From Defluviitalea saccharophila (GTDB lineage: Bacteria; Bacillota; Clostridia; Lachnospirales; Defluviitaleaceae): DNA of 24,000 nt. Numbering within the stretch: the first letter of the stretch is position 1; each line of letters starts with the position of its first letter. Below the pieces are notes generated by a model. It made no database searches. It saw only the letters and a list, made by a program, of their open reading frames with translations, and had not been told where the DNA came from. The DNA is taken from NCBI RefSeq assembly GCF_038396635.1, contig NZ_CP121687.1, positions 2,384,592 to 2,408,591 on the forward strand, in the 5' to 3' direction. Positions 1 to 21,420 of this stretch are shown here, piece by piece. Position numbers and translations under genes: made by a program.

Positions 1-2514
1 CAGACGCAGACTAAAACCGAGGCACAACCTCAAAAACCAATCCCGCCCGTTGCGACACCAAAAAGAAAAAGTGCCGCAGCACCGAAAAGAAACGGCGGGC
101 GTAATGCGCTGTGTATTATATTGTCCGTCTTGCTCGTCATACAGACCACTGTGGTGGCGCTCTACGGCTGGCCGGGGTTTATGGTGGGCGGCGGCAAAGA
201 CGCAGTTGTTGAGACCGAAAAGGCGATTGTCTCCACGGATAACGCATCGATCACACTGTCCGGTGTGAGGATTGATATCGATACCTTAAACCTCATTGAC
301 GGTGAAAAGGAACTGACCGTCAGCCGCAAAAAACAATCGGTTGACGAAGCCTCCGGACTTACGTCGGTGGAATATGACATTACTCTGGGAGAAATGCATC
401 ATCTTTACGCACCGCTTACGGTCACCGTTCCATACAACAATAAAACTGCCGACGACGGTGAGGTTGTATTAGAGCATTACAATAGCGATTATGGGATGTG
501 GATACCTCAGAGTACCGTCAACAATGGCGACGGCACGGTCACCGCAAGTCTGACATCCCTTTCGCCAGTGAAGCTCGTATATCTCGGCAAAGATTATCCT
601 ACCGGCGTTTTTTACATCTCTGAAAAGGATTCAAACTATGCAAAGATGATGGTTAGCCATAGATACTGGAATATTATTAAGAATAAACCGCGAGATGACG
701 CTAAAGCAATTGTAAAAGACTTCTTAGAAAATGGAAATACAAAAAATTCCATGCCGTGGGCAGAAAATCTGTTATCGCCTGATGGAATTGATTTGACAAA
801 CAACATATCCGGTATATTCGATGAACTTTTCAACTCAGTAAGTTCGTTAACAGAACTGACGTCTATGCAGATGAGATTCACTACCGAAAAAGTGGCAAAA
901 GGCATCTCTGTTGTTGGTCTTGGGGTAGCATTAACCCAGCTTGGATTGGATCTTTATAATTCAAAAGGAAATGACAGTACTGCGGCAGCAAATCTGTACA
1001 AGAATATCTTTTCGAGCAGTGGCTCATTATTTACCTACATGACCGGGTACGGCTCCCTGCCGTTTTCTGTAGCCTTTTTAGGCGTAGCTGTAGTAAGCTT
1101 CGGATTGGACTATGGTGTCCAAACGGCAGAGGAGTACAAGGAGAAAGTCAACAAAAACATATTTGACCAGTATTTCAAGGATTATGCGAAATTTGACGAA
1201 AAGCACTGGTACAAACTTTTTGTTGATGCATACTGGGATGAATGGCAGAATGGAACGGCATCGGTAGAAGGGATTGAAGCGGCATATAAAACGGTGCTGG
1301 ATGCGATCGAAGGATACTCCGAAGAATTTTGGAAAGACGTATTCAGGGAAGGCAGCGACGCGCTGACCTTTGCTGTAGCCGAAGCCGGTAAAACAAACTA
1401 TTATACACCGACGGAAGACCAGAAGGCGATGTATGTCGAGGAATTTAAAAGGTATATGAATATACGTTTTAAGGAAAAAGTTATACCGTGGATAGAACGA
1501 TTTCTGTTAGAACAGCAGCAGGATGCGCTTTACGCTTCGCTGTATAAGCTCTGTGAACCGTTCAACGAATACTACAGAGTTCAAGTTCAGGAGATTGCAC
1601 CCATAGATTCAGGTGACACTTGCAAATATCAGGAACACACGATACGGTTCGGTAACGAAAGTGGATTCACCCTTATTGATATACCCGACACATGGACGCT
1701 TAATGCGCCACAGGACGATGACCAATGGGCTGTCACAAGTGAATTCACATGTCTTTCATACCTTTTGGCTGGAGCACCGGACAGAATCATGTTGTTTCCT
1801 AAAGACAGCGACGAAACAGACCCAAAAGATGCTGTTTTGACCCAAAAATTTGACTGGTATACGGGCGACGACATATTTGAGGATGACCCGGCGCTGACGC
1901 AGGAATTTAATGCAACGGAAAAGGTCACGGTGATTTCACTAGGACAGATGAGGAAGGACTTTGAATACTATTTGGTTGAAAGATATGACTTAGACCCTCG
2001 TCGCCTCTACTATGACGGCTACGGATATGAAATTATGGCCGTCAAGCGTGATATGCAGTCTAATCGACTTACGGAACATTTGATTAGGGGGATAGATGCG
2101 GAAGTAGAGCAGGATAGCTATCGAGAATACAGTTATGATTCTTCCACTGGATTGCTTACAATGAGTGATGGCCTCGAATATTCGGAACTCAAGCCTAACT
2201 CAGATTGGACGAATATAAGCGGACACCGCTCTTCTCCTGAGTTTCTTCCGGGCAAATGGGGGATGGAGGAAGAGAAAACAGGGAAAATGCTGTATAAATA
2301 TATAAGATACCTTGCAGTAAACCAGCTCTCTCCCGGCAAATGGCAGGTGGATGAGACTGGAGAAACCATTGAATATGTACTTAATTCCTTTGATGCCAGC
2401 GACCAACAATCAAAACGTCTGGAATCTCCTTCGGGACGGAGCTTTCTCGAAGAGGCGCGTTCCTTTGCCACAGAAATGGGCATAGAGATGTATGACGGCC
2501 AAGGATATGATTGA
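1..2514 (+). CDS. Large membrane-anchored protein of unknown function, 5'-truncated by the window edge (837 codons visible)
   Basis: Frame 1 has no stop from nt 1 to the tracker's TTG at 121 (QTQTKTEAQPQKPIPPVATPKRKSAAAPKRNGGRN...), so the real start lies upstream of the window. A basic stretch is followed by a TM helix (ALCIILSVLLVIQTTVVALYGW) and then ~790 aa of mostly hydrophilic sequence. Stop TGA at 2512-2514. I recognise no family. Confidence 0.75.
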   Translation, partial: QTQTKTEAQPQKPIPPVATPKRKSAAAPKRNGGRNALCIILSVLLVIQTTVVALYGWPGFMVGGGKDAVVETEKAIVSTDNASITLSGVRIDIDTLNLIDGEKELTVSRKKQSVDEASGLTSVEYDITLGEMHHLYAPLTVTVPYNNKTADDGEVVLEHYNSDYGMWIPQSTVNNGDGTVTASLTSLSPVKLVYLGKDYPTGVFYISEKDSNYAKMMVSHRYWNIIKNKPRDDAKAIVKDFLENGNTKNSMPWAENLLSPDGIDLTNNISGIFDELFNSVSSLTELTSMQMRFTTEKVAKGISVVGLGVALTQLGLDLYNSKGNDSTAAANLYKNIFSSSGSLFTYMTGYGSLPFSVAFLGVAVVSFGLDYGVQTAEEYKEKVNKNIFDQYFKDYAKFDEKHWYKLFVDAYWDEWQNGTASVEGIEAAYKTVLDAIEGYSEEFWKDVFREGSDALTFAVAEAGKTNYYTPTEDQKAMYVEEFKRYMNIRFKEKVIPWIERFLLEQQQDALYASLYKLCEPFNEYYRVQVQEIAPIDSGDTCKYQEHTIRFGNESGFTLIDIPDTWTLNAPQDDDQWAVTSEFTCLSYLLAGAPDRIMLFPKDSDETDPKDAVLTQKFDWYTGDDIFEDDPALTQEFNATEKVTVISLGQMRKDFEYYLVERYDLDPRRLYYDGYGYEIMAVKRDMQSNRLTEHLIRGIDAEVEQDSYREYSYDSSTGLLTMSDGLEYSELKPNSDWTNISGHRSSPEFLPGKWGMEEEKTGKMLYKYIRYLAVNQLSPGKWQVDETGETIEYVLNSFDASDQQSKRLESPSGRSFLEEARSFATEMGIEMYDGQGYD

Positions 2515-2657
2515 TAACGGGGTATCGAGATGACGGGAAAACAAGACTTGATACGGATAAAGGGCGTGTTTGTGCGGAACAGAATATACGGCGCACTCAA
2601 GTATTTCGGTTTTTATCTGGCAGTATATCGTATCCCATTGCCCGAAAGGAAAATTGT

Positions 2658-3041
2658 ATGAACAGTAAACCTAAGCTTGTGCTTATTAAAATTTCATCCA
2701 TATTGATGCTGCTGGTCGCCATGCCCATGTTCCTGTGGTGCTTGCAGCTTATAGACAACGCGGCACTGGACTACACCTACGCCGGAGCGGGTTGCTTCGC
2801 GGCCGGAATTGCGTACGTATTTTCTATGATAACGGCCATCACTGGGCTTGCCTTTGCGGGGAGGCTCCACCGACATTGCTGGTGTCGGATGCTTGGCTAT
2901 ATCCAACTGGCGGCGGTGGTGCTGCTGATCGTTCCGCTTCACTCATATACCGCACTCACATTACCGCCGCTTTTCCTGCTTACCGTTCTGTATCTGTTTG
3001 GCGTGGGCTGGCGCGAAAAGCTAGATTGCGAACAACAATGA
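2658..3041 (+). CDS. Small polytopic membrane protein (127 aa, ~4 TM), unknown function
   Basis: ATG at 2658 is preceded by AAAGGA (2645-2650). The N-terminus MNSKPKLVLIKISSILMLLVAMPMF is followed by further hydrophobic segments. The tracker's ORF starts at an overlapping TTG (2511), which would add 49 hydrophilic residues. That alternative start cannot be excluded. Confidence 0.55.
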   Translation: MNSKPKLVLIKISSILMLLVAMPMFLWCLQLIDNAALDYTYAGAGCFAAGIAYVFSMITAITGLAFAGRLHRHCWCRMLGYIQLAAVVLLIVPLHSYTALTLPPLFLLTVLYLFGVGWREKLDCEQQ

Positions 3042-3054
3042 AAGGAGCACCGAG

Positions 3055-4383
3055 ATGGCAAAGAAGAAAGCAAACAAAAACATCCCTATTCCCATCCTCA
3101 TCCTTATCTGCGCCGTGTTGCTGCATGCCATATATACCAGCGTCAGCACCCTTGCGCTGGCGATATGGGGCGACAGCGTAATGGGTACGGTGGACAGCTA
3201 TGACAGCCGGCTGGACAACACAAAAGCGGAGCCAAATCGCTCCCGAACCGTTTCCAAGGGATATTGGTTTATAGCAAATGGCAAGGAATACCGGGGCTAT
3301 GTGATATATAGCAGCGACGAGGCTTGGCCAAGCTTGGATGAAGGTGAAACGCGCTCCGAGCGCATCCGCTACCTTAGCTTTTTACCTTATGTGAATAAGC
3401 CCGCCATGCTGTGCGAATTTAGCGAGATGGGCGAAGGGGCAATTATTTACCACATTCTCGCCCCTATCGGTTCTCTGCTTTTGCTGCTGCTTGTCATACG
3501 CACAGCCAGACGAGGGAAAAAGAAGAAACCAGCGGCGAGGAAACCCGCCGCGCCTCAAATATTCGAAGTAAGGAGTGATACGGATATGTTTTGTCCCAAC
3601 TGCGGAAACAAGCTGCCGGAGGGCGCGGCTTTCTGTTCGGGCTGCGGCGCAAAAACACAGGCCAGCGCCCCCGACGTGTGTACGGCCTGCGGCATGGCGC
3701 TGCCGGAGGGAGCCGAATTTTGCATCGGCTGCGGAGCGGCGGTGAACCCGGTAACGCCGCAGCCGATGGAGCCGAGCCAAGCGACAGCTCCTATGCCCTC
3801 ACAGGGGGGCGCGGGGCTGGTCGGCTTTTCCGATAGATGTAATTCACCCGAGATACTGGCCGCCGCGCAGAAGAATAAGAAATCCTCCATCGGTTGTATG
3901 TGGATATTGGTTTTCGTGCCGCTCATCGGCTTTCCCATCGCTGGTCTGCTGATGGACGATTTCCCCTTTGGAGAATCCCTTGTCATCGGCGTGGGCATTG
4001 CTCTTGTCATGCTGGTCATTAACCTTCTGGCGCTGCGAAGAACCAAACAGCCCATGTGGGAGGGAGTAGTCGTCAACAAGTACAGCAAGGAGAAAAGCGA
4101 GCATAGGGGCGGCGAGGACGATAATTACAGAACCTATACGGAATATACTACGATCATCAACACTGACGCGGGAAAGAAAAAGACCATCGTGGAAAAGGAC
4201 AGCGGGCGGCATATGTACGACTATCTCTCCGTTGGCAACAGGGTGCGGTTTCATCCCAAATTCGGTACATACGAGAAGTACGACAAATCTAAAGACCGTA
4301 TCATTTACTGCAATGTCTGCTCCATGATGAACCCCATACAAAATGACCGCTGCAAGCGGTGCAATAATTTATTATTCAAATAA
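3055..4383 (+). CDS. Multi-TM protein with three zinc-ribbon motifs and two DUF3592-like modules, unknown function
   Basis: ATG at 3055 follows AAAGGAG. Domain order:
- TM helix
- beta-rich segment (GTVDSYDS...GKEYRGYVIYSS...)
- TM helix
- K/R-rich linker
- CPNCGNKLPEGAAFCSGCG and CTACGMALPEGAEFCIGCG (zinc_ribbon_2-type CxxC...CxxC)
- two TM helices
- WEGVVVNKYS... domain
- C-terminal CNVCSMMNPIQNDRCKRC. Confidence 0.8.
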   Translation: MAKKKANKNIPIPILILICAVLLHAIYTSVSTLALAIWGDSVMGTVDSYDSRLDNTKAEPNRSRTVSKGYWFIANGKEYRGYVIYSSDEAWPSLDEGETRSERIRYLSFLPYVNKPAMLCEFSEMGEGAIIYHILAPIGSLLLLLLVIRTARRGKKKKPAARKPAAPQIFEVRSDTDMFCPNCGNKLPEGAAFCSGCGAKTQASAPDVCTACGMALPEGAEFCIGCGAAVNPVTPQPMEPSQATAPMPSQGGAGLVGFSDRCNSPEILAAAQKNKKSSIGCMWILVFVPLIGFPIAGLLMDDFPFGESLVIGVGIALVMLVINLLALRRTKQPMWEGVVVNKYSKEKSEHRGGEDDNYRTYTEYTTIINTDAGKKKTIVEKDSGRHMYDYLSVGNRVRFHPKFGTYEKYDKSKDRIIYCNVCSMMNPIQNDRCKRCNNLLFK

Positions 4384-4397
4384 GGAGGCTTTTCATA

Positions 4398-4757
4398 ATG
4401 GATAAATTTAATACTTTGCTGGAGGCGGCACAGCTTGCAGCCACACGTTGCGGAAGCTGGAGCTTTGCCACTTCCGATGATAGATATGATGTAAAAGGTT
4501 TACTGGTGCTTGCCGAGACAAGCGACAGTGAAACCCCCATCGATGAGGACAGCTTTTATGTGGTATCGCGCGCCGGAGCCATCGGCTTATGCGAGGACGG
4601 AGAGGACATCGACTGGCTGTTTCTGACAGGCTCCAGTGAAGATGAGGATTTACCCGCCACCTATCAGGTCGACCCGCAAATAAATTTCTGCCCGAAATGC
4701 GGCTCCGGTGTTGTTTCCGGCGCTCGCTTTTGCGGAAAGTGCGGCAATAGACTCTGA
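4398..4757 (+). CDS. Small acidic protein with a C-terminal zinc ribbon (119 aa)
   Basis: ATG at 4398 follows AAGGAGG. The C-terminus is FCPKCGSGVVSGARFCGKCGNRL (CxxC-x10-CxxC). The N-terminal ~95 aa are acidic and contain no TM segment. Confidence 0.8.
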   Translation: MDKFNTLLEAAQLAATRCGSWSFATSDDRYDVKGLLVLAETSDSETPIDEDSFYVVSRAGAIGLCEDGEDIDWLFLTGSSEDEDLPATYQVDPQINFCPKCGSGVVSGARFCGKCGNRL

Positions 4758-4805
4758 TACATCTTTGAATAAAACAGAAGAATTCTAAAATGTGGCATAA
4801 TAGTT

Positions 4806-4850
4806 AAGACGAACAGGCAGTTTTACCTGCTGTCTGTTCGTCTTTTATAT
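4806..4850 (+). terminator. Rho-independent terminator closing the GC-rich gene block
   Basis: aagacgaacag-gcag / ctgc-(tgt)-ctgttcgtctt forms an imperfect ~15-bp stem (4806-4844) with loop ttttac, followed by tttatat. Confidence 0.7.
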
Positions 4851-4930
4851 CATTTGTTCCGTATTCAGTTTACCCTGACCCTCGGTTCACAGGTTGTCTT
4901 TATGACTACTTGTATTTTGGGAGGCTGTTT

Positions 4931-5021
4931 TTTTATTGCATAGGAAATTCCTTCAGATTTCCTATGCAATAAAAAGCCCTCCCGGCAAAATGCACACTGG
5001 CCCGTATTGTATTTTGTCGGC
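4931..5021. repeat. Structured intergenic repeat, copy A
   Basis: ~90 nt aligning to 11201-11291 with a handful of substitutions and one 1-nt indel. It contains a perfect 16-bp hairpin: ttattgcataggaaat (4933-4948), loop tccttcag, atttcctatgcaataa (4957-4972). A second possible stem is ccggcaaaatgca / tgtattttgtcgg (4982-4994 / 5007-5019), which pairs fully only as + strand RNA (two G-U pairs). Confidence 0.8.
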
Positions 5022-5065
5022 AAAAAAATTTTTATAAATTTACTTGATTTTGAAAAGAATATTCA

Positions 5066-5094
5066 TTGAAAACTTTTCTTTTTAAAAGTATAAT
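5066..5094 (+). promoter_or_regulatory. Sigma-A type promoter of nagA-nagB
   Basis: -35 TTGAAA (5066-5071), 17-nt spacer, -10 TATAAT (5089-5094). It lies 44 nt upstream of the nagA ATG. Confidence 0.6.
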
Positions 5095-5110
5095 ACTGGT
5101 ATAGAACACT
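5095..5110 (+). promoter_or_regulatory. NagR/DasR-type (GntR/HutC family) operator, dre-like
   Basis: ACTGGTATAGAACACT matches the dre consensus ACTGGTCTAGACCACT (as I recall it) at 14 of 16 positions. It lies immediately downstream of the -10 box of an amino-sugar catabolic operon. Confidence 0.5.
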
Positions 5111-5137
5111 ATACAAATTAACGAAGGGAGAGATAGG

Positions 5138-6280
5138 ATGAAGTGTTTGTATAATGGAAAGCTAATTTTAAAAGACCAGGTCATTACGGGAAAAGCGATT
5201 ATCTTCGATGAGCGAATTTATGATATTGTTGATGAAAATGAATTGAGTACGATTAAAAATCTGGAAAAGATCGATGCAAAGGGTAATTATATCTCACCGG
5301 GATTTATTGATATACACATTCATGGATTTGATGGATATGATACAATGGACGGCACTGAAGAAGCTCTTAAGTCAATCAGTAAAGGCATTACAAGAAACGG
5401 AGTAACCTCATTTTTACCCACGACTATGACAATGTCCAAGGAAAGAATCCTGAATGCCCTGGAAGCTGTACGCCAATTCAAAGGAAAGGAAACAGAAGGA
5501 GCAGAAATTTTAGGGGTTCATATGGAGGGGCCGTTTATTAATGTGAAATTTAAAGGTGCCCAGGACCCACAGTATATCATCCCTTCGGATTTTGAAATGG
5601 TTAAAGCATATAAAGATATCATCTCATTAATTACTATAGCACCGGAGACAGAAGGGGCATTGGAATTTATTAAAAAGGTTAAAAGAGAGACCAATATCGT
5701 TCTTTCTATGGGACATACAGCTGCTACTTATGAAGAAGCCAGAGAAGGTATTATTTGCGGTATTAGCCATGTTACCCATTTATTTAATGCTATGACAGGG
5801 CTTCATCACCGTAATCCGGGAGTGGTAGGAGCTGCTTTAACCCATGATGTTACCTGTGAGGTAATCGCAGATACGATTCATATCCATTCTGGACTATTCT
5901 CAATGCTTCTTAAGACAAAAGGTATAGACAAAATCGTTCTGGTTACCGATTGTATGTCTGCCGGAGGAAAAGAAGAGGGAGAGTATGAATTAGGGGGACA
6001 AAAAGTAATTGTTAAAGATAAACAAGCCAGACTTGAAGATAATACCCTTGCCGGAAGTGTGCTTAATTTAAAAGATGCAGTATATAATGTTAATGAGCAT
6101 ACTGATTTTACCATTCCTCAGTTAATTTCTCTTGTTACCGCAACTCCTGCAAAAATCCTGGGGGTTAACCAGCGAAAGGGAACTCTTGAAGTAGGAAAAG
6201 ATGCAGATATAACGGTATTTGATAACAAAATGAATATTTCTTTAACTATTGGAAGGGGGAAAATTTTGTATGAAATTTAA
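5138..6280 (+). CDS. nagA: N-acetylglucosamine-6-phosphate deacetylase
   Basis: 380 aa. Amidohydrolase metal-binding motif FIDIHIHG, then GHT and THLFNAM, typical of NagA. RBS AAGGGAGAG. Confidence 0.9.
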   Translation: MKCLYNGKLILKDQVITGKAIIFDERIYDIVDENELSTIKNLEKIDAKGNYISPGFIDIHIHGFDGYDTMDGTEEALKSISKGITRNGVTSFLPTTMTMSKERILNALEAVRQFKGKETEGAEILGVHMEGPFINVKFKGAQDPQYIIPSDFEMVKAYKDIISLITIAPETEGALEFIKKVKRETNIVLSMGHTAATYEEAREGIICGISHVTHLFNAMTGLHHRNPGVVGAALTHDVTCEVIADTIHIHSGLFSMLLKTKGIDKIVLVTDCMSAGGKEEGEYELGGQKVIVKDKQARLEDNTLAGSVLNLKDAVYNVNEHTDFTIPQLISLVTATPAKILGVNQRKGTLEVGKDADITVFDNKMNISLTIGRGKILYEI

Positions 6281-7031
6281 TTTAGGAAATCTAAGAATTT
6301 ATATTGAATCTAATTATGAAGAAATGAGTAAAAAAGCAGCTTACATTTTATCAAGCCAAATTCGCCTTTATCCTCAAAGTGTAATAGGTCTTGCTACCGG
6401 AGGAACCCCTGTCGGTATGTACAAAGAACTGGTGCGTATGCATAAAGAAGAGGACTTAGATTTTTCTGAACTCACTACCTTTAATTTAGATGAATATTAT
6501 CCTATTTCAAAGGATAATCCTCAAAGCTACTATTATTATATGATGGATAATTTATTCAGTCATGTGAATATTGATATAAACCGAGTGCATATACCAAATG
6601 GAATGGCAGAAGATGTTAAGGAAGAATGCAAGAACTATGAAAAGATGATAAGAAATGCCGGAGGCGTTTCTCTTCAGATCTTAGGCATCGGTCCTAATGG
6701 GCATATCGGATTTAATGAACCTGATACCAAATTAGAACCCTACACCCATTTGGTTGAATTGGATGAAAAGACGATTGAAGCCAATTCAAGATATTTTAAT
6801 TCAATGGAAGAAGTTCCAAAGCAAGCACTCAGTATGGGCGTTAAAACCATTATGAGTGCAAAGAAGCTTGTCCTTTTGGCAAGCGGAAAAAATAAAGCTG
6901 AAGTTATTAAGGAAGCTATTATGGGAGGCATTACACCGGAGATTCCTGCATCCTTTTTACAGCTTCATCCGGATGTAACTTTTATATTGGATGCAGAAGC
7001 TGCTTCACAACTTCTGCCATTGCTAAAATAG
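6270..7031 (+). CDS. nagB: Glucosamine-6-phosphate deaminase
   Basis: GLATGGTP, NLDEY and LGIGPNGHIGFNEP motifs, with close overall resemblance to Bacillus NagB. ATG at 6270 follows GGAAGGGGGA and overlaps the nagA stop by 11 nt. The tracker's 6249 start is a TTG extension. Confidence 0.9.
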   Translation: MKFNLGNLRIYIESNYEEMSKKAAYILSSQIRLYPQSVIGLATGGTPVGMYKELVRMHKEEDLDFSELTTFNLDEYYPISKDNPQSYYYYMMDNLFSHVNIDINRVHIPNGMAEDVKEECKNYEKMIRNAGGVSLQILGIGPNGHIGFNEPDTKLEPYTHLVELDEKTIEANSRYFNSMEEVPKQALSMGVKTIMSAKKLVLLASGKNKAEVIKEAIMGGITPEIPASFLQLHPDVTFILDAEAASQLLPLLK

Positions 7032-7053
7032 GAACGGGAAACCGTTCCTTTTT
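7030..7053. terminator. Bidirectional terminator between convergent nagB and corA
   Basis: aggaacgg-gaaa-ccgttcct (8-bp stem, GAAA loop), followed by tttt on the + strand and preceded by aaaata. Confidence 0.6.
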
Positions 7054-7999
7054 ACAGCCATTTTTTTCTTTTAAAAATAATATAGAGGATAATTATAAGC
7101 AGAAACATAATTCCGAGACTCAGTGGATAACCATATTTCCAGCTCAGTTCCGGCATATATTCAAAATTCATTCCATAGATTCCTGTAATCAGTGTAAGGG
7201 GAGCAAAGAAAAGGGCAAGTATCGTCAATCGAGTCACAATGGCATTGGTTTGTGCAGTAAGAACGGATTCGTATAAATATAATAACTGATCCCCCATTTC
7301 TTTTAGACTGGATAAATAATCATAGAGTTTATTCATTCTGATATCGATATTTTTGAAATACCGAACATGGTTCGGTTTTATAAAGCCATTTTCATTGACG
7401 AGAAATTGATCTCCGATATACAAAAGAGGGCGAAGATATTTTTTTAATTGATTGATTTGCATTCTAATAGTGTTTATTTCTATGAATTGCTTTTTCTCTA
7501 CATTCGTGATGATATCCAATTCCAGCCGCTGAAGTTTATCCTCTAGATGTTCTAATGACGAAAAGAAATGACTAAGAATTCGATCAAATATCCAAAAATA
7601 GATTCTGTTGAGTTCGTTCGCAGGATTCTCCATCATATTAATTTTTTGAGTAATATATTTTTCTATTTCATCGATGATAGTGCTTTTTGGTTCCCCTACC
7701 AGAATAATATAGTTAGAACCGATATATAAATTGATTTCTTCAAAAAAAGTTTTATTATCCAAGAAATAAAAGTAGTTTAGACTGATAAAATCATAGTTTT
7801 CATAGCTGTCGAAACGAATATTTTCATCAAAGGTTAAACATTCTTCAATGGTACTGGAATCAAAATGAAATATGGGCTGCAGGAGTTTGATTTCCTTTGT
7901 TAAACATAAAATAAAATAGCTATTGTCTTCACTGTACCAGGAAAGATTATCCGAAATATCTTTAAGAATCTTATTTTGAGTAAGATGATAAATGTTCAT
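7052..7999 (-). CDS. corA: CorA-family magnesium/cobalt transporter
   Basis: C-terminal two TM helices carry the signature YGMNF motif (GIYGMNFEYMPEL). ATG at 7999 follows GAAGGAAAG. The tracker's 8032 start is a TTG without a good RBS. Confidence 0.85.
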   Translation of the reverse strand: MNIYHLTQNKILKDISDNLSWYSEDNSYFILCLTKEIKLLQPIFHFDSSTIEECLTFDENIRFDSYENYDFISLNYFYFLDNKTFFEEINLYIGSNYIILVGEPKSTIIDEIEKYITQKINMMENPANELNRIYFWIFDRILSHFFSSLEHLEDKLQRLELDIITNVEKKQFIEINTIRMQINQLKKYLRPLLYIGDQFLVNENGFIKPNHVRYFKNIDIRMNKLYDYLSSLKEMGDQLLYLYESVLTAQTNAIVTRLTILALFFAPLTLITGIYGMNFEYMPELSWKYGYPLSLGIMFLLIIILYIIFKRKKWL

Positions 8000-8117
8000 T
8001 GCTTTCCTTCTTTCAAAGGGATTCTTCTTCAACCTGTCTAACAGGAAAGTTTATAATAATTTTCCCCTTTGAAAAGAAAATTATTAATGTTGAAAGCTGG
8101 ATTTTTAAAAGACGGCA

Positions 8118-8636
8118 TTAGTTTATAGATAAAATGTGGTGAAAAATCGTTTCTTTAAAATTCTTTCTCCAGGGAATATTCACCGCTTCAAAGGTATGTT
8201 GAGAAACAAGAGGCTCTTTGATTCCACCTTGGTAGGTAAAACCTGTAATGATTGCCGAATGCTGAATTCTGTTTTGATTATTTCTGTATTGAATAATATC
8301 TCCTATTTCCAATAAATCTGCTATAGAAGCATTATAGGAATCGTCTCCTTTTATGGAGACGGTTTTTGCTTTTATACCAAAGCCCTTTTCCTGTGTTACG
8401 GTGCGAATATACCAATATAAAGAAGCAGCTACTGCCCAACAAATCGATGCTTTGCCATTTTGATACCACCAGGGATGGGTAGGGTGATAATGATTTTTAG
8501 CACCTCCTGCCCTTAGGCATTGAGAAATAAAATTAGTACAGTCGTTGCCTTGGAAATAAACATAGTCAGGATTCGGTCGCTTTCCGTATTTTATGGCATA
8601 TTCTACGGCATTTTTTCGATTATACTTCTCACTCAT
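8118..8636 (-). CDS. Putative amidase-domain protein (Amidase_6-like)
   Basis: The N-terminus YAIKYGKRPNPDYVYF...NDCTNFISQCLRAGG resembles the 'putative amidase domain' family, with a Cys in the CTNF context. ATG at 8636 has GGAGG 9 nt upstream. The tracker's 8654 start is a GTG inside that RBS. Confidence 0.65.
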   Translation of the reverse strand: MSEKYNRKNAVEYAIKYGKRPNPDYVYFQGNDCTNFISQCLRAGGAKNHYHPTHPWWYQNGKASICWAVAASLYWYIRTVTQEKGFGIKAKTVSIKGDDSYNASIADLLEIGDIIQYRNNQNRIQHSAIITGFTYQGGIKEPLVSQHTFEAVNIPWRKNFKETIFHHILSIN

Positions 8637-8907
8637 AATAAGGGATACCTCCACTCTATTATTGACTTATTAAAAGCATATAAAGTCTAAAAATTCTTAG
8701 TAAAAAGAGCCTTTTGCTGTGAAAAAGACTGATACAAATTTACTAATGGAGAAATCGTTTTTTCAGCAAATATAATTGTTGTTTAGGTTAATTTTTTATA
8801 GTAGTATAATTATAGGAGGTTGTCGATTATTGGAACCGATTTTCGTATTATGTAAAAATATGTTTATCTAATGAAGTATATATGGTATAATTGGAAGGAG
8901 CAGGTTA

Positions 8908-9744
8908 ATGGAAGAAGTATCATTGCTAAAGCTAATAATTGTGGGACTTCCTGAGACAGTCTTAAACTTATTAATTGGCCTGGTTTTATGTAGAGATAAT
9001 GTAAAGAAAAACTGGAAAAGCTTCATATTAAAAATGTGCATAAGCGTTATTACTATTTTAATTACAATATTTTTTGTTAGGAGTAATATTAATTCTTTAT
9101 TATGGGTTACTGTATATATGGTATTTGTATATACATCTGTATTTAAATATGTGTGGGAGATGAATTATCGTCAAAGTATTTTATCGGCTTGTAGTACAAT
9201 CTTCTTATTAACTTTTTTGGAAACAATAACACTTCCCTTATATACTATGCTGGTAAAAGGTTTGAACTTCACCAATATTTTTGATGGAGGCATGTTATTC
9301 TCACCTTTAATGAGAACATTACATATTATTGTTTTTTTGATATTAACAAGGTGGAATTTGCGAAACAATGAAGTTATTAGTGGTGAGTGGAGCAGACAAA
9401 ACCAGCATTCTAAGATAGCAATTATTATAATTATTATCTCTATGTTTTGGTGTATGGCATCCATGCTTAATTATGTAGATTTTACTTATAAAATATCAGT
9501 GTTTGAAACTGAGGCATCTTTTCTAGTAGGAAATATAAGATTGGTTTTTTGGATGACGATATGGTTTTTTATCTTTTTGTTGGTACTTGCATATTATATT
9601 TTTAGCTTTTTAGATACACAAAAGATGTTTGATATATCTTTAGAAGAAATCCTTAGCACCGTGGGAGACGAGTTGTCTAAGGAGGAGATCAAAGGATATA
9701 TTGACATACTCCAACAAAAGTATAATGAGAAAAGGGGGGAGTAA
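8908..9744 (+). CDS. 7-TM membrane protein, AgrC-sensor-like topology without a kinase domain (278 aa)
   Basis: RBS GGAAGGAG. There are about seven hydrophobic helices over residues ~5-235, then a 45-aa charged helical tail with no His and no ATPase motifs. The stop TAA (9742-9744) is 1 nt from the agrD ATG. Confidence 0.75.
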   Translation: MEEVSLLKLIIVGLPETVLNLLIGLVLCRDNVKKNWKSFILKMCISVITILITIFFVRSNINSLLWVTVYMVFVYTSVFKYVWEMNYRQSILSACSTIFLLTFLETITLPLYTMLVKGLNFTNIFDGGMLFSPLMRTLHIIVFLILTRWNLRNNEVISGEWSRQNQHSKIAIIIIIISMFWCMASMLNYVDFTYKISVFETEASFLVGNIRLVFWMTIWFFIFLLVLAYYIFSFLDTQKMFDISLEEILSTVGDELSKEEIKGYIDILQQKYNEKRGE

Positions 9745-9745
9745 G

Positions 9746-9877
9746 ATGAAAAGAAGATTACTAGTTATTTTAGGAACAATCGCTACTTTTATGGCTGCTT
9801 TTACCGTTACAGCTGGTGCATGTACAATTTTTCATGGTGAAACTCAGGTTCCTGAAGCACTCCAAAAAGACCTATAA
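9746..9877 (+). CDS. agrD: AgrD-type autoinducing peptide precursor (43 aa). Not in the ORF track
   Basis: Translation: MKRRLLVILGTIATFMAAFTVTAGACTIFHGETQVPEALQKDL. RBS GGGGGGAG. It has an amphipathic/hydrophobic leader, a single Cys followed by 4 residues (CTIFH), and an acidic tail. The tail's Pro is 6 residues after the ring end (GETQVPEAL), the same spacing as S. aureus DEVEVPKEL. Confidence 0.8.
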   Translation: MKRRLLVILGTIATFMAAFTVTAGACTIFHGETQVPEALQKDL

Positions 9878-9885
9878 GAATCAAG

Positions 9886-9913
9886 ATAACGGGAAGCTTT
9901 TCCTTCCCGTTAT
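9886..9913 (+). terminator. Stem-loop after agrD (weak terminator, attenuator or processing site)
   Basis: ataacgggaag / cttcccgttat forms an 11-bp stem with a ~6-nt loop. The downstream U-tract is poor (tctcgtg), so termination is probably partial. Confidence 0.35.
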
Positions 9914-9933
9914 TCTCGTGAAGGGGTGATGTA

Positions 9934-10341
9934 ATGAATGTATTTATCGCTCATCGGGTTCATAATATGCAAAGAGATTTGATCATTGAAAAAACAGAAG
10001 AGTTGTTATCCAAGATTAACTGTACCCAAGACAGTAAAGAGTATTTAAAAACTTTAATTGTAGAATTGGTAACCGGTAATTTTTATTCGATGACAAAAAA
10101 CAAGCAGTGGTCGGTTTATCAGATTTTAAAGATTCGAATAAGACAAAATGAAAGGACCATCTTAAACCATGCGACCAAGGCAATAGAAGACATTCAACTG
10201 GATAATGAAACCAGAAATTGTCTCAATAGTTTAGGCATACAGGGAGAAATAAAAGTAGCTAAGTTTTTAAAGGCAGCTGCACAAGAAGTACAAAAGCAAG
10301 TAGAACAAGAAAAAAGGCAAAAGGGAACTTGGATTGGGTGA
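9934..10341 (+). CDS. Hypothetical cytoplasmic helical protein (135 aa) between agrD and agrB
   Basis: ATG at 9934 is 7 nt after AAGGGG. There is no TM segment and the C-terminus is Lys/Glu-rich. The stop lies 4 nt before the agrB ATG. I recognise no family. Confidence 0.65.
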   Translation: MNVFIAHRVHNMQRDLIIEKTEELLSKINCTQDSKEYLKTLIVELVTGNFYSMTKNKQWSVYQILKIRIRQNERTILNHATKAIEDIQLDNETRNCLNSLGIQGEIKVAKFLKAAAQEVQKQVEQEKRQKGTWIG

Positions 10342-10345
10342 AAAA

Positions 10346-10915
10346 ATGAGTATAATAGACCATACAGCAGAAAAGCTTGCATATCAAATAAAAAAAGCTT
10401 CTCCAAATACGGATGAACAAATAGTAAAATATTATTATACCAGAGTACTTAATCATCTTATTTTTTATTTGATGTGTATACCTTTAATCATTTTGCTGAA
10501 TTTAAAAGTATCTTCATTTATTATTATTTTAATAAGTTATACTCTTTTGCGTAGATGCTTTGGCGGTTCTCATCTTGAAAGCGATATTGGATGTTTAATA
10601 TTAAGTTTGGTAACAATGCTTGGAGGGACTTGGGTATCAAATTACATTAAGCCCTCTATTGCTCTTATTATTGCAATATATATGCTTACTCTTGCAGTAA
10701 TTCAATGGACCGGACTTGTAGATTCCCCTAAAAAAAGAATTGTGAAATTACGGGCGGCATTTATAAGACAAGGCTATTTTACAATCGCCTGCTTAGGCAT
10801 GATTACTTTTATATTATATAGTTTTGATAAGACCAGGGCTATGACAAATCCTGTATTAGTTGGAATAGTCATAGAATTAGTCAGTTTGGTCATTGGGAAA
10901 ATTAGATACAGATAG
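10346..10915 (+). CDS. agrB: AgrB-family AgrD-processing membrane peptidase
   Basis: LLRRCFGGSHLESDIGC has His and Cys 7 residues apart, as in S. aureus AgrB (RRHAHGAHAPSSFWC; catalytic H77/C84). It also has the VDSPKKRI motif and multiple TM helices. ATG at 10346. The tracker's 10334 start is a GTG extension. Confidence 0.85.
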   Translation: MSIIDHTAEKLAYQIKKASPNTDEQIVKYYYTRVLNHLIFYLMCIPLIILLNLKVSSFIIILISYTLLRRCFGGSHLESDIGCLILSLVTMLGGTWVSNYIKPSIALIIAIYMLTLAVIQWTGLVDSPKKRIVKLRAAFIRQGYFTIACLGMITFILYSFDKTRAMTNPVLVGIVIELVSLVIGKIRYR

Positions 10916-10925
10916 GAAGTATAAT

Positions 10926-11165
10926 ATGAATATTTACAAGCTCATTGAAGAGCATGAAGAAGAGTTGAAAAATGATCTTGAAATCAGAATGTCAAATGTT
11001 CTAAACAAACCAATCACCATTTCGGATGAACAGTGGCATAAGATTATTCAGGGAACCATGGAGGACATTGAATATAACATGGTATCCTTTAATAGGGACA
11101 TAGATAAAGAGTATGTGCTTGAAACCATGAAATCAATCATAGAACTTCATATATTAAGAATTTAG
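10926..11165 (+). CDS. Hypothetical small acidic protein (79 aa) downstream of agrB
   Basis: ATG at 10926 is 6 nt after AGGAAG and 10 nt after the agrB stop. The protein (MNIYKLIEEHEEELKNDLE...) is acidic, probably helical, and has no Cys and no TM segment. Confidence 0.6.
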   Translation: MNIYKLIEEHEEELKNDLEIRMSNVLNKPITISDEQWHKIIQGTMEDIEYNMVSFNRDIDKEYVLETMKSIIELHILRI

Positions 11166-11200
11166 AAACCGGTGGAGTTATTTCAGTAACTAAGCCGGTT

Positions 11201-11340
11201 ATTTTATTACATAGGAAATTCCTTCGGATTTCCTATGCAATAAAAAGCCCTTCGGGCAGAATGCACACTCGCGCGCATTGTTTTTGTCGGCTTTGCCGAC
11301 CGCGCTCGGCGCTAGAGCTTCGCTTGCGAAGCTCTTTCTT
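11201..11340. repeat. Structured intergenic repeat, copy B, with two extra hairpins
   Basis: 11201-11291 aligns to 4931-5021. The same hairpin is present, ttattacataggaaat / atttcctatgcaataa (11204-11243), with one A-C mismatch. It is followed by gtcggc-ttt-gccgac (11285-11299) and agagcttcgc/gcgaagctct (11314-11335), then a T-rich run. This probably also serves as the terminator of the agr-region operon. Confidence 0.8.
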
Positions 11341-11420
11341 GTTGCCACTTTTTTATAGTATACATATCCTATATACTTTTTACACAAAATAAAAAGAAAA
11401 TTTGTATAGGAGAGACTGAA

Positions 11421-12935
11421 ATGGTAAAAGAGAAATCAAATTCTTATTGGATTGCTTCCACCAAAGAGACCAATTACCCTCAGCTTTCAGAGGATATATC
11501 TGTTGACGTTGCCATTATCGGCGGAGGGATGGTTGGCATTAGTTCTGCCTGGTATTTAAAAAAAGAAGGATTAAAGGTTGCCGTTATAGAAGCCAAAAAG
11601 ATTTTAGAAGGGGTAACAGGAAATACTACGGCAAAAATTACGGCACAGCATCACCTGATCTACGATACTCTTATTAAAAAATTTGGAGAAAACATAGCAC
11701 AGCAATATGCCAATGCAAATTTATGGGCCATAGAAGAGATTGCTAAGATCATTAATGAAAATGGCATAGACTGTGATTTTATAAGACAGCCGGCTTATAT
11801 TTATACCCAGTCGGAAGACTATATAAAGCAGATCGAAGACGAGGTTAAGGCTGCACAAAAATTAGGCATCAATGCTTCCTTTGAGTCAAATCTTCCTCTG
11901 CCTTTTTCCATTAAGGGCGCCATGAGATTTGACAATCAGGCTCAATTTCATCCAAGAAAATACCTGCTTCCCTTGGCGGAAAAAATTCCAGGGGACGGAA
12001 GCTTCATATTTGAGAATACAAGAATGAAAAATATAGAAGGAGAAAACCCTTATACAGTCATTACCACAAGTGGGAAAATTACTGCGAAATACGTTATTAT
12101 TGCATCTCACTTCCCTGTATACGATCATTTTGGATTCTATTTTGCCAGAATGTATGAATCAAGAACCTATGCCTTAGGTATGAAGATCAAAGAGAAATTC
12201 CCCGGGGGCATGTATCTTTCTGCAGAAAGTCCAAGCCGTTCTCTTCGTTCACAGCCTTATGAAGATAGTGAACTAGTAATTCTTGTAGGAGAGGAGCATA
12301 AGACAGGGCAGCATAAGGAAGCATCAGAACATTACAGAAAGTTAGAGGCATTTGCCCGTGAACACTATGAGGTAGAAGATATTTTATATCATTGGTCTGC
12401 CCAGGATTGTATGCCCCTTGACGATATTCCTTACATCGGACGTATTACTTCAACCGCAGCCAATATGTATGTGGCTACAGGGTTTAAAAAATGGGGAATG
12501 ACCCACAGCGTTGTAGGAGCAGCCATTATTAGAGACCAAATTCTGAACAGACAAAACCCTTGGGAAGAAGTATATAATCCTTCAAGGTTTACCCTTAAGC
12601 AGTCGGCTAAGAAATTCTTTGAAATCAATGCAGATGTGGCAAAGGAACTTATTTCAGGGAAATTAGAAATTCCTCAAGATACCCTAAAGGATTTAAAAGA
12701 AGAAGAAGGCTCAGCCATTGAGATTGAAGGCAGAAGAATAGGCGCGTATAAAGACCATAAGGGAGAAATACATCTAGTAGATACCACTTGCAGTCATATG
12801 GGATGTGAATTAAAATGGAACGATGCTGAAAAGACATGGGACTGTCCTTGCCATGGTTCAAGATTTACCTACAATGGAGAGGTTATAGAAGGTCCGGCAG
12901 TTAATCCTCTGCAAAGACTAAAAATACGAGAATAA
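11421..12935 (+). CDS. FAD-dependent oxidoreductase fused to a C-terminal Rieske [2Fe-2S] domain (YhfW-like)
   Basis: N-terminal dinucleotide-binding motif VAIIGGGMVGISSA. C-terminal Rieske motifs CSHMGC ... CPCHGSRF. RBS AGGAGAG. Confidence 0.8.
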   Translation: MVKEKSNSYWIASTKETNYPQLSEDISVDVAIIGGGMVGISSAWYLKKEGLKVAVIEAKKILEGVTGNTTAKITAQHHLIYDTLIKKFGENIAQQYANANLWAIEEIAKIINENGIDCDFIRQPAYIYTQSEDYIKQIEDEVKAAQKLGINASFESNLPLPFSIKGAMRFDNQAQFHPRKYLLPLAEKIPGDGSFIFENTRMKNIEGENPYTVITTSGKITAKYVIIASHFPVYDHFGFYFARMYESRTYALGMKIKEKFPGGMYLSAESPSRSLRSQPYEDSELVILVGEEHKTGQHKEASEHYRKLEAFAREHYEVEDILYHWSAQDCMPLDDIPYIGRITSTAANMYVATGFKKWGMTHSVVGAAIIRDQILNRQNPWEEVYNPSRFTLKQSAKKFFEINADVAKELISGKLEIPQDTLKDLKEEEGSAIEIEGRRIGAYKDHKGEIHLVDTTCSHMGCELKWNDAEKTWDCPCHGSRFTYNGEVIEGPAVNPLQRLKIRE

Positions 12936-12957
12936 TGTAGAAATATCACTATTTTAT

Positions 12958-12987
12958 TTTACTAAAACGACGCCAATATGATATAAT
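12958..12987 (+). promoter_or_regulatory. Candidate sigma-A promoter of asnA-asnS-tkt
   Basis: -35 TTTACT (12958-12963), 18-nt spacer, extended -10 TGaTATAAT (12979-12987). Confidence 0.4.
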
Positions 12988-13028
12988 GATAAAATTGGAA
13001 TGGAAGAAAGAAGTAAGGGGGAACACGA

Positions 13029-14051
13029 ATGACTGATCAACTTAAATCCTTGATTATACCTGAAGGATATTGCTCGGTATTATCTGTAAGAGAAACTGAA
13101 GCAGCTATAAAAAAATTAAAAGATTACTTTGAAAATAAATTGGCGGAAGCATTAAATTTATCGAGGGTATCTGCACCTTTATTTGTTAAGACCGAAACGG
13201 GATTAAACGATAATTTAAATGGGGTTGAAAGACCGGTTTCATTTGATGTCTACGGCATTGGAGGAAAAACGGTTGAGATCGTACATTCCCTGGCGAAGTG
13301 GAAAAGAATGGCCCTAAAACAATATGGCTTCTCTGTTGGTGAAGGGTTATATACCGATATGAATGCCATAAGAAGGGATGAAGATTTAGACAATTTACAT
13401 TCTGTCTATGTGGACCAATGGGACTGGGAAAAAATCATCACAAAAGAGCAAAGAAATCTTGAAACCTTGAAAGAAATCGTTAGAAAGATATATAATGTAT
13501 TCAAAGATACAGAAAATTACGTAACAAACTTATATCCTGTGATTAAGCCGATTTTACCGGAGGAAATTACGTTTGTTACGACACAGGAATTAGAAGACAG
13601 ATTCCCAAATTTAACTCCTAAAGAAAGAGAAGATGCTATTGCAAAAGAAAACGGAGCTGTTTTTATAATCGGAATCGGTGGGAAACTCAATTCCGGGGAA
13701 AAACACGACGGTCGTTCTCCCGACTATGATGATTGGTCTTTAAATGGAGATATCATCTTTTGGTATCCAGTATTAGATCGATCTTTTGAACTCTCTTCTA
13801 TGGGGATTAGAGTAGATGAAGAAACTCTATTAAAACAACTTCAAATTGCAGGCTGTGAAGAGAGAAAGGAATTAGAGTTTCATAAAAAACTTCTCAAAGG
13901 AGAACTACCTTATACAGTAGGTGGAGGAATCGGTCAATCCAGACTTTGTATGTTTTTCTTAAGAAAAGCTCATATTGGAGAAGTACAGTCCTCCGTATGG
14001 TCGGAAGAAATGATTGACTCCTGCGAAAAAGCTAATATTTATTTACTGTAG
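13029..14051 (+). CDS. asnA: Aspartate-ammonia ligase (asparagine synthetase A)
   Basis: Strong resemblance along its length to E. coli AsnA: [58 protein letters not shown]. Confidence 0.9.
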
Positions 14052-14089
14052 AGATAAAAAAGATTTATCTAAGAGAGGAGAAGAGTAAA

Positions 14090-15481
14090 GTGAAGTATAT
14101 AATGGTTAAAGAATTATATAGGAAAACAGAAGAATATGCGGATAAGAAAGTAACTGTAGGAGGATGGATAAGAACCGTTCGTTCCTCCAAAACCTTTGGG
14201 TTTATAGAATTAAATGATGGTTCATTTTTTAAAAACGTTCAAATTGTATTTGAAGACACTCTGGAGAACTACCAAGAGGTTTCAAAGCTCAATGTTGGAT
14301 CTGCGATTATTGTAGAAGGAACTCTTGTTCAAACCCCCGAGGCAAAACAGCCTTTTGAAATTAAAGCAAGCTCTATTACAATAGAAGGTACATCTTCTCC
14401 GGAGTATCCTCTTCAGAAGAAAAGACATTCTTTTGAATTCTTAAGAAGCATTGCCCATCTACGCCCCAGAACCAATACTTTTTCAGCAGTATTTAGAGTA
14501 AGATCCTTGGCGGCATATGCAATTCATCAATTCTTTCAAGAAAGAGGATTCGTTTACGTACATACACCTATTATTACTGGAAGTGATGCAGAAGGTGCGG
14601 GAGAAATGTTTCGTGTTTCCACAATGGATTTAAACAATCTTCCAAAGGATCAGGACGGAAACGTAGATTTCAGCAGAGACTTTTTCGGAAGAGAAACCAA
14701 CCTTACGGTAAGCGGACAACTTTCAGCAGAAACCTATGCTATGGCATTTAGAAATGTATATACCTTTGGTCCAACCTTCCGTGCAGAAAATTCCAATACT
14801 GCTAGACATGCGGCAGAGTTCTGGATGATAGAGCCTGAAATGGCCTTTGCAGATTTGAAAGACGACATGGTTTTAGCAGAAGAAATGTTAAAATACATCA
14901 TTCAATACGTTATGGACAATGCTCCGGAAGAAATGGAGTTCTTTAATAACTTTATAGACAACACATTGTTTGAAAGATTAAGCAACATAGTGAACTCTGA
15001 GTTTGGACATATTACTTATACAGAAGCAATAGAACTATTGAAAAAGGCCAATCATCAATTTGAATACCCGGTAGAATGGGGAAGCGACCTTCAAACAGAA
15101 CATGAAAGATATATCACAGAAAAGATCTTTAATAAGCCTGTTTTCGTGACGGATTATCCAAAAGACATTAAAGCATTCTATATGAGACAAAATGATGACG
15201 GAAAAACCGTTGCTGCTATGGACTTATTGGTACCTGGCGTAGGGGAAATTATTGGCGGAAGCCAGAGAGAAGAGCGATTAGATGTATTAGAAAGAAGAAT
15301 CAAAGAATTAAACATGAAAGAAGAAGACTATTGGTGGTATCTTGATACAAGAAGATATGGAGGAACAAGACACGCCGGCTTTGGTCTTGGATTTGAAAGA
15401 GCTATTATGTATATAACGGGAATGTCAAACATAAGAGACGTTATTGCATTCCCCAGAACAGTAAAAAATGCAGAGTTCTAA
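14090..15481 (+). CDS. asnS: Asparaginyl-tRNA synthetase
   Basis: Class IIb aaRS. N-terminal OB fold ([22 protein letters not shown]), [21 protein letters not shown], and C-terminal [11 protein letters not shown] at 14090 follows GAGAGGAGAAG. ATG at 14102 is an alternative start. Confidence 0.9.
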
Positions 15482-15508
15482 CAAATCAATACTAAGGAGG
15501 ATCATTCA

Positions 15509-17485: not shown

Positions 17486-17512
17486 ATCATTAAAAATTTA
17501 TAAGTTTTAATA

Positions 17513-17540
17513 AAAGAGGGACAATTTGTCCCTCTTTTTA
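17513..17540 (+). terminator. Rho-independent terminator after tkt
   Basis: aaagagggac-aattt-gtccctcttt, followed by tta/T-rich sequence. Confidence 0.75.
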
Positions 17541-17584
17541 ATATGTATATAATAAGATTTCTAAAAAAGAAGGGAGGGCAATCG

Positions 17585-18307
17585 ATGAAAATCATAAAAG
17601 ATTTGTTGACGATTAATGAATACAGTCGACCGGGGCTTAAACTTAACAAAGTACAGGGGGTCGTCGTTCACTGGGTAGCCAATCCAAATACCTCGGCAAA
17701 AGCCAACCGCAATTTCTTTGAAAACCGGAGAAACGGAAAATCCGGCTACGGTTCTGCCCATTATATTATTGACCTGGACGGCAGTGTTATTTTGGCAATT
17801 CCACCAGAAGAAGTTGCTTATCATGTGGGCGCAAAATCCTATCGTTCCGAAGCCATCAAACGGTTAGGAACCTACCCGAACGGAAATACTTTGGGTATTG
17901 AATGCACCCATGTGGATTGGAACGGCAAGATGACACCAGAGACTTATGAAACTCTTGTCTTGCTTTGTGCAGACTTATGTAAGAAGTATAATCTTAATCC
18001 TTTAACAGACTTATACAGACATTATGATATTACGGGAAAGCTGTGCCACAAATGGTTTGTGGATCATCCAACAGAATGGGAAACATTTAAACAAAAAGTA
18101 AAGGAGCAGATGGGCGGAAATATGGATAAAATAGCAGCCAATAAAGAACAAGTAAAATTTAATCTGTTGGGAAAAAATTATTCCTTTGAAGGATTAATAA
18201 AGGACGGGAAAACCTATGTGACGGCAAGAGATTTACTGGAAGTATTAGGCTTTACGGTGGGATGGGAAGCACAATCAAAGACAGTGATTGTAAAGAAGAA
18301 AGATTAA
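17585..18307 (+). CDS. N-acetylmuramoyl-L-alanine amidase (Amidase_2/PGRP type) with a C-terminal copper-amine-oxidase-N-like wall-binding domain
   Basis: NEYSRPG...VVVHW..N, AHYIID and GIE..H resemble CwlA/phage-type amidases. The C-terminal GKTYVTARDLLEVLGFTVGWEAQSKTVIV is typical of the 'stalk' domain. ATG at 17585 follows AGGGAGGG. The tracker's 17543 start lacks an RBS. Confidence 0.8.
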   Translation: MKIIKDLLTINEYSRPGLKLNKVQGVVVHWVANPNTSAKANRNFFENRRNGKSGYGSAHYIIDLDGSVILAIPPEEVAYHVGAKSYRSEAIKRLGTYPNGNTLGIECTHVDWNGKMTPETYETLVLLCADLCKKYNLNPLTDLYRHYDITGKLCHKWFVDHPTEWETFKQKVKEQMGGNMDKIAANKEQVKFNLLGKNYSFEGLIKDGKTYVTARDLLEVLGFTVGWEAQSKTVIVKKKD

Positions 18308-18351: not shown

Positions 18352-18360
18352 TTTAAATTA

Positions 18361-21353: not shown

Positions 21354-21361
21354 TTTTTATA

Positions 21362-21392: not shown

Positions 21393-21420
21393 GAATATAA
21401 GCGAAAAAGGAGGAAATCCT

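Follow-up and report, generated by a model that had tools for sequence, protein, structure and literature searches.

The locus studied here raises the question of why the chromosome of Defluviitalea saccharophila, a member of the Lachnospirales with a reported G+C content of 35.2 mol% (PMC5817277), should switch abruptly from a block of GC-rich genes to AT-rich DNA. The analysed stretch of 24,000 nucleotides (hereafter "the window") begins within this block, which the original prediction, made from the sequence alone, took either for the edge of a horizontally acquired island continuing upstream or for a chimeric assembly join. We conclude that window positions 1-4917 very probably belong to an integrative mobilizable element (IME) residing in the D. 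saccharophila chromosome, of which they form the cargo-side end. The island proposal is borne out by the serine recombinase and relaxase encoded upstream, by an end that can be placed at base level, and by an empty site in relatives.

Ends of the element and the empty site

The right end of the element was located by comparing related loci. The tail that follows the last island gene (g4), up to and including GGTTCACAGGTTGTCTTTATGACTACTTGTATTT (4884-4917, plus strand), is common to 11 loci of different Bacillota, and every locus diverges right after it. This cargo-side terminal inverted repeat would be the element arm of attR. On the opposite side of related elements, the end lies 88 nt past the recombinase stop codon and carries GGTTCACAAAGTATCCTTATGAACACCCGCC when read outward, followed by unrelated flanks (in L106, the recombinase stops at 3218 and the element ends at 3306). 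The cargo-side GGTTCACAGGTTGTCTTTATGACTACTTGTATTT and the recombinase-side GGTTCACAAAGTATCCTTATGAACACCCGCC form imperfect inverted repeats, as is expected for the arms of a serine-recombinase attP, and the junction comparisons suggest a TT core, the putative crossover dinucleotide, at window 4916-4917.

Directly beyond the element, host DNA at 4918-4934 (plus strand) reads TGGGAGGCTGTTTTTTT, which equals the 3' half of the orthologous glnS terminator and can be assigned as the attB' half-site of the interrupted terminator. The intact orthologous sequence, AAAAAACAGTTTCCC-ATT-GGGGAAGCTGTTTTTTT, is found in island-free relatives, namely an Epulonipiscium-labelled metagenome-assembled genome (MAG) and three Logan assemblies (L131-L134), whose nagA is at least 90% identical. 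In these genomes, glnS, encoding a glutamine-tRNA ligase/YqeY fusion, is followed by this terminator and directly downstream by nagA, with a GC content of 35% throughout and no island. The protein clusters of the relatives' glnS are singletons and contain no D. saccharophila ortholog. In the window, nagA (5138-6280, plus strand; Pfam Amidohydro_1) is the first host gene on the AT-rich side, and is preceded by a promoter-like site at 5066-5094 (11/12 match). Judging from the sequences of these relatives, the element sits between glnS and nagA, in the loop of the predicted glnS intrinsic terminator.

This type of target recurs: in many Bacillota, the element lies at other palindromes that resemble terminators. 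Seventeen of the 21 distinct flanks look like half of a terminator, with a T-run at a distance of 5-21 nt from the junction, versus 4.6% of random positions. When the flanks of one copy (L037) are joined, they yield AAAAATTCCGCAG-ACACTTA^CTGC-CTGCGGAATTTTT, which is a perfect terminator hairpin with the cut in its loop. Just inside the recombinase-side end lies a hairpin followed by a T-run, and the hairpin at 4806-4844 has the corresponding place at the cargo-side end; the element thus seems to bring a substitute for the terminator it disrupts.

The L037 copy (4443-11879; 7,437 bp) is also peculiar in its content, as is L047: it has both terminal repeats and the cargo operon, and lacks both recombinase and relaxase. 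It appears to be a non-autonomous derivative that needs a recombinase in trans.

Gene content of the element

The DNA upstream of the window could be followed on the last 17.9 kb of a 107-kb Logan contig (L092, whose coordinates equal window positions plus 12924), where 17 genes were called between the recombinase and the right end. The original prediction had recommended inspecting this upstream region for integrase and conjugation genes, and genes for a serine recombinase and a relaxase are indeed found there, along with the remainder of the cargo operon. The backbone is encoded on the minus strand and consists of a large serine recombinase (567 aa), which runs off the left edge of L092, then a 100-aa protein, a PF03432 relaxase (460 aa), a NikA-like protein accessory to the relaxase, and an AAA_25/DnaB_C-like protein. 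The recombinase has the Pfam domains Resolvase, Recombinase, Zn_ribbon_recom and DUF4368, and thereby the Resolvase catalytic, Recombinase and zinc beta-ribbon domains that define large serine recombinases; its N-terminus (YGRLSQED) is typical, and a full-length homolog was also examined. When the N-terminal 100 aa of the recombinase were used to search for homologs, only fragments no longer than 175 aa were found.

The cargo is encoded on the plus strand. It starts with genes for a DUF6076 protein and an HTH_17 protein, followed by a 470-aa multi-transmembrane (membrane-bound) LuxR/GerE regulator, which heads the cargo operon. Next come, in order, a 172-aa protein, a 686-aa protein, a DUF4352 lipoprotein, a 663-aa lipoprotein, a 235-aa protein, and finally g1, g2, g3 and g4, which end the operon.

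No VirB4, type IV coupling protein (T4CP) or other type IV secretion system or coupling family was found among the 17 genes of L092 up to the right end. This gene set, with a recombinase and a relaxase and without a mating pore, therefore points to an IME. Such elements encode their own integration/excision enzyme, here the 567-aa recombinase with its four domains, and a relaxase and/or an origin of transfer (oriT) without a full mating pore, here the PF03432 relaxase together with the NikA-like protein. They also have definable ends, represented here by the right end at 4917 shared by 11 loci, the recombinase-side repeat, and the empty site of the relatives. With the last 1.5 kb on the left taken from relatives, the element would be approximately 19.3 kb long.

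Compositional break and integrity of the junction

The switch in composition noted in the original prediction is real and significant, yet the figures given with it were too strong. GC content is 48.0% over window 1-4917 versus 37.0% over 4918-24000, and 60-nt lines average 0.481 in the block versus 0.370 downstream (Mann-Whitney p = 7e-20); the ranges initially quoted, 55-63% for the block and 20-37% downstream, fit only 15% and 51% of the respective lines. A single change point fitted by maximum likelihood falls after base 4745. The boundary, initially placed at approximately 4850-5000, is more exactly the element end at 4917. Composition is not uniform by any of the measures used: GC content at third codon positions (GC3) is 47-65% in the four block genes versus 24-39% in 16 downstream genes, and the tetranucleotide profile of 1-4900 correlates with that of the host part at 0.58, versus at least 0.94 for segments lying wholly in host DNA. 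The GC content of L092 upstream of the window remains at 41-59% throughout.

The window contains a second, smaller rise in GC, inside host DNA, where the gene for a collagen-like protein (18361-19869, minus strand), which has G-x-x repeats and a C-terminal part resembling a beta-helix, raises GC locally to 45-48% (19000-19750). Elsewhere in the host part, an agr-like region at 8663-11250, comprising a 278-aa membrane protein, a gene for a 43-aa peptide, and AgrB, differs among strains: it is only 75% identical over 8724-9905, and two contigs (L002/L003:3890-6368) carry an FGGY kinase gene in place of AgrB.

That a native gene can reach 45-48% GC lends something to the idea that the block genes are native as well and owe their high GC to amino-acid or expression bias rather than to transfer. 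This explanation is refuted by the sharply different GC3 and tetranucleotide signatures of block and host part, by relatives without the block, and by the presence of nearly identical DNA in other orders, and we attribute essentially no probability to it. The reading of the break as a chimeric assembly of two organisms, fused near 4950 at a hairpin or repeat common to both, could draw on the fact that the window is identical to two separate Logan contigs of run DRR667268, of which the 107-kb one ends at 4958 and the other begins at 4953, and that the k=31 contigs of other samples all start at 4953. It is contradicted by four independent metagenome contigs from three other studies (L002 and L009, both k=141, L010, k=127, and the Joint Genome Institute contig L003), which span the GC switch from starts at 4777, 4792 and 4817, are 100% identical over 4777-4987, and reach nagA. 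Moreover, a single NCBI contig of 3,014,560 bp carries nagA and asnS together with g3 and g4, the island protein records are named Defluviitalea saccharophila, and the junction coincides with a precise element end within an orthologous terminator that is left intact in relatives. The chimeric join, which retains scarcely any probability, is thus excluded.

The contig breaks themselves deserve a comment. In the two spanning contigs whose record names give k (k=141 and k=127), the start plus k - 1 equals approximately 4917-4918, which would fit a de Bruijn graph in which the sequence preceding 4917 has multiple contexts. A 70-nt host hairpin (4917-4986, no strand assigned; -36.7 kcal/mol, z = -6.7) starts right at the junction. 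Every k=31 Logan contig of the six samples concerned is broken within it, at 4953-4958, even though its perfect arms measure no more than 19 nt; an artefact of sequencing or of the assembly graph at the hairpin is the probable cause.

Distribution and module exchange

Relatives of g3, the most conserved marker of the cargo module, occur at 80 loci in approximately 76 GTDB species genomes, with 65-92% amino acid identity except for two distant or partial matches. The genera and orders concerned include Sedimentibacter, Anaerotignum, Robinsoniella, Lactonifactor, Fundicoccus, Acetobacterium, Tissierella, Hathewaya, Proteiniclasticum, Syntrophomonas and Christensenellales. At the nucleotide level, these loci are mostly approximately 75-92% identical, and less so in the most distant ones. 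In the low-GC hosts Fundicoccus, Hathewaya and Tissierella, GC falls just past the block, with host-specific drops.

A comparison of protein taxonomy between the block and the downstream genes, as suggested in the original prediction, gave a clear result: block clusters span many families, and host clusters stay within Defluviitalea and the Epulonipiscium-labelled MAG. At 90% identity, the g3 cluster has 127 members from many families and that of g4 has 151, including Blautia producta and Oscillibacter; for the host genes, nagA has 9 members (only Defluviitalea- or Epulonipiscium-labelled) and asnS has 1. Versions of the 663-aa protein from Sedimentibacter, Pelotomaculum, Zhaonellaceae and Anaerovoracaceae match it at 95-98% identity. 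The backbone, too, is found again next to different flanks, and several metagenomes contain near-identical copies of the element (relaxase 98-100%) in such other surroundings, which argues for recent movement. A BLAST search of window 2600-4950 against plasmid records gave no match.

Element copies were also seen on short contigs binned into Porticoccaceae, Actinomyces, Parabacteroides and Spirochaetales MAGs (L036, L045; P0042, P0383). These are probably cases of a mis-binned mobile element, not of cross-phylum transfer.

The cargo module is found in further genetic contexts. A gene encoding an AAA_13 ATPase (380 bits in L021), full-length or truncated, abuts it upstream of the LuxR gene in five loci (L021, L047, L049, L087, L088), and an IS3-type transposase abuts it in L087 and L038. 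In one tail variant (L015:11748-11836), a c-di-GMP-I riboswitch (77 bits) comes directly after the g4 homolog, and a pemK RNA motif lies further downstream.

The family is common among the Bacillota of anaerobic digesters and the gut and is not confined to single orders, which makes it a candidate for carrying genes through these communities.

The cargo operon

The four co-oriented genes predicted in the block were recovered at 1-2514 (cut at the 5' end), 2658-3041, 3055-4383 and 4398-4757, all on the plus strand. The window holds the 3' 838 codons of g1, which encodes an 880-aa cargo protein with one transmembrane (TM) helix and a large ectodomain. Its complete gene (L092:12796-15438) reveals the TM helix at residues 79-97 and an N-terminal CMNC-x10-CAKC zinc ribbon (MGKYCMNCGNELYTGARFCAKCG), precisely the ribbon that had been foreseen upstream of the window. 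The g1 protein and the 663-aa lipoprotein of the island are distant paralogs (23% identity), as are the large cargo proteins in general, and no Pfam, NCBIfam, PADLOC or PDB match was found for g1. Its ectodomain occurs in only 1 of the 67 family members seen. In nearly all related loci, this part of the gene (window 194-2540) is swapped for unrelated sequence and the N-terminus and g2-g4 are conserved, a replacement that looks like cassette-style hypervariability.

The remaining genes are smaller. g2, whose gene call begins at 2511, encodes a small membrane protein with four TM helices, for which the only Pfam match, DoxX_2, is below threshold; its homologs (cluster c6) occupy the same position in 21 loci. 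g3 encodes a 442-aa membrane protein with four TM helices and three CxxC-x9/10-CxxC ribbons, arranged as a central double and a C-terminal ribbon (Zn_Ribbon_1, 42.8 bits for a cut-off of 25; DZR, 39.3 bits for a cut-off of 27.3). g4 encodes a 119-aa soluble protein with a C-terminal zinc ribbon (Zn_Ribbon_1, 30.3 bits for a cut-off of 25). The design of ribbon plus TM helices that three of the genes were thought to share therefore applies to g1 and g3, whereas g4 has a ribbon and no TM helix; g2, with its four TM helices and no ribbon, differs from all three. The terminator expected after g4 could be confirmed as an element-borne, intrinsic-terminator-like hairpin (4806-4844, plus strand) which ends the cargo operon, folds at -25.5 kcal/mol (z = -8.4), is followed by UUUUAU, and is conserved among loci with the shared tail. 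An Rfam search of the window gave no match.

The order of the module is conserved: LuxR regulator, small TM protein, large secreted proteins or lipoproteins, DUF4352 protein, g2, g3 and g4. Searches of the cargo against Pfam, NCBIfam, PADLOC, PHROGs and PDB sequences found nothing but zinc ribbons, DUF4352 and the LuxR helix-turn-helix (HTH) domain. Among the PADLOC defence models, only this HTH domain matched (CARF-HTH model), and the other nine proteins had no match. An AlphaFold model of the 663-aa paralog (predicted local distance difference test score, pLDDT, of 74) comprises a lipoprotein signal, a ZU5-like sandwich, a long helical domain and C-terminal beta domains. With this model, Foldseek found nothing at E <= 0.001, and only a ZU5-like beta-sandwich resemblance at E = 3e-3. 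A model of g3 computed without an alignment was discarded (pLDDT 45). Because of the hypervariable ectodomains, we tentatively suggest that the cargo might be a cell-envelope module under LuxR control that serves in surface exclusion, defence or adhesion. Being widespread, conserved and uncharacterised, the operon is a reasonable target for functional work.

Proposed mode of movement and alternative explanations

We propose that the serine recombinase would recombine an attP, formed by the two inverted-repeat arms around the TT core, with a palindromic, terminator-like attB, and that it would also excise the element as a circle. The relaxase and the NikA-like protein would then nick an oriT, the mating pore being borrowed from a co-resident conjugative element, and the hairpins inside both ends would stand in for the terminator split by insertion. 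Under this model, the attP of the circle should read ...ACTTGTAT-TT-AGGCGGGTGTTCAT..., the left end in D. saccharophila should lie approximately 88 nt after the recombinase stop and finish with ...GGCGGGTGTTCATAAGGATACTTTGTGAACC (in window orientation), and the flank to the left of this recombinase-side end should be ...AAAAAAACAGCCTCCC and glnS.

Several points weigh against the interpretation as an IME, or at least against parts of it. Excision, circularisation and mobilisation are part of the proposal and have only indirect support from the near-identical copies at different sites and in different taxa, and no oriT was located on L092. The TT crossover is a proposal drawn from the comparison of junctions, and both the length and glnS as the left neighbour are taken from related genomes. 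Searches for families, defence systems and structures assigned no function to the cargo. Finally, its module also occurs beside triple serine recombinases, an IS3 element, an AAA_13 gene or a c-di-GMP-I riboswitch, or with other tails, and is therefore a shuffled module that is not tied to the present backbone.

Two alternatives concern the nature of the element more than its existence. The first is a decayed, immobile island, either a fossil insertion or one mobilised only by a recombinase acting in trans, for which the recombinase-less derivatives with both ends (L037, L047) set a precedent. However, recombinase, relaxase and both types of ends are intact here, and the near-identical copies with other flanks do not fit a fossil, so that we consider this explanation unlikely. 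Alternatively, the block could belong to a larger self-transmissible integrative and conjugative element (ICE) or composite, of which the IME-like part would be only a section. IMEs often lie within ICEs (PMC5704250), and in other genomes the cargo module adjoins triple serine recombinases and sigma or HTH genes typical of ICE ends. Yet the stretch from the recombinase to the right end is devoid of VirB4, T4CP and mating-pore genes, the recombinase-side repeat lies 88 nt past the stop in all relatives with unrelated flanks beyond it, and the empty site in relatives is simply the chromosomal glnS-nagA interval. A larger ICE therefore seems quite improbable.

Other classes of mobile elements were rejected. 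The 6-bp coupling pattern of a Tn916-type target is absent; there are no genes or ends of a group II intron or of IS200/IS605; and, with respect to a prophage or phage satellite, BLAST of window 2600-4950 found no match in 50,697 phage records, and PHROG matches were limited to generic HTH, lipoprotein and ribbon families.

We retain the IME as the explanation of the locus. It makes the compositional break a matter of biology rather than misassembly, and it gives base-level ends to an element that automated annotation marks only as hypothetical or zinc-ribbon proteins. Terminator-loop targeting, if true, would explain how the element finds a harmless site in almost any genome. A more far-reaching possibility, which we regard as rather doubtful, is that of an undescribed IME family of very broad host range, whose recombinase would recognise intrinsic-terminator loops generally, in a degenerate, structure-like manner, and would bring replacement terminators, and whose cargo of a membrane LuxR, zinc-ribbon membrane proteins and lipoproteins with hypervariable ectodomains would be a new surface exclusion, defence or adhesion system.

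Comparison with known systems

The element resembles the Bacillota IMEs that carry a single large serine recombinase in having defined ends, short identical core sequences and a cargo module, as well as its own relaxase and accessory protein without a mating pore (PMC5704250). Unlike these, its cargo is a LuxR, zinc-ribbon and surface-protein operon and not a resistance gene, and its target is the loop of terminator-like palindromes and not a specific gene.

Another parallel by description is IME_Rho_tet, which likewise has a relaxase, a relaxosome accessory factor, a serine recombinase and terminal inverted repeats, a boundary 81-90 bp past the recombinase stop (versus 88 bp here), a very broad host range within Bacillota, and many partial copies (PMC12904643). 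IME_Rho_tet is 10.7 kb long, has a 21-bp repeat, carries tet(W) or tet(32), encodes all its open reading frames (ORFs) in the same orientation, and is mostly found integrated within MAFF2 ORFs (PMC12904643). In contrast, the present element is approximately 19 kb long, has divergent modules and is inserted in an intergenic terminator, and no ribosomal-protection tet gene was found on L092. The likeness concerns the backbone logic as described.

Tn4451/Tn4453 are comparable to the proposed element in that one large serine recombinase (TnpX) performs excision and integration at a 2-bp core, target specificity is low, and mobilisation takes place in trans (PMC5704250). The Tn4451 relaxase is of the MobV type (PMC5704250), whereas the one found here belongs to PF03432. 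Tn4451 carries catP, in contrast to the LuxR/zinc-ribbon cargo of the present element. The core dinucleotide of Tn4451 is GA, and that of the present element appears to be TT. The backbone logic is thus known from serine-recombinase IMEs, and the differences lie in the apparent terminator-loop target and the uncharacterised cargo.

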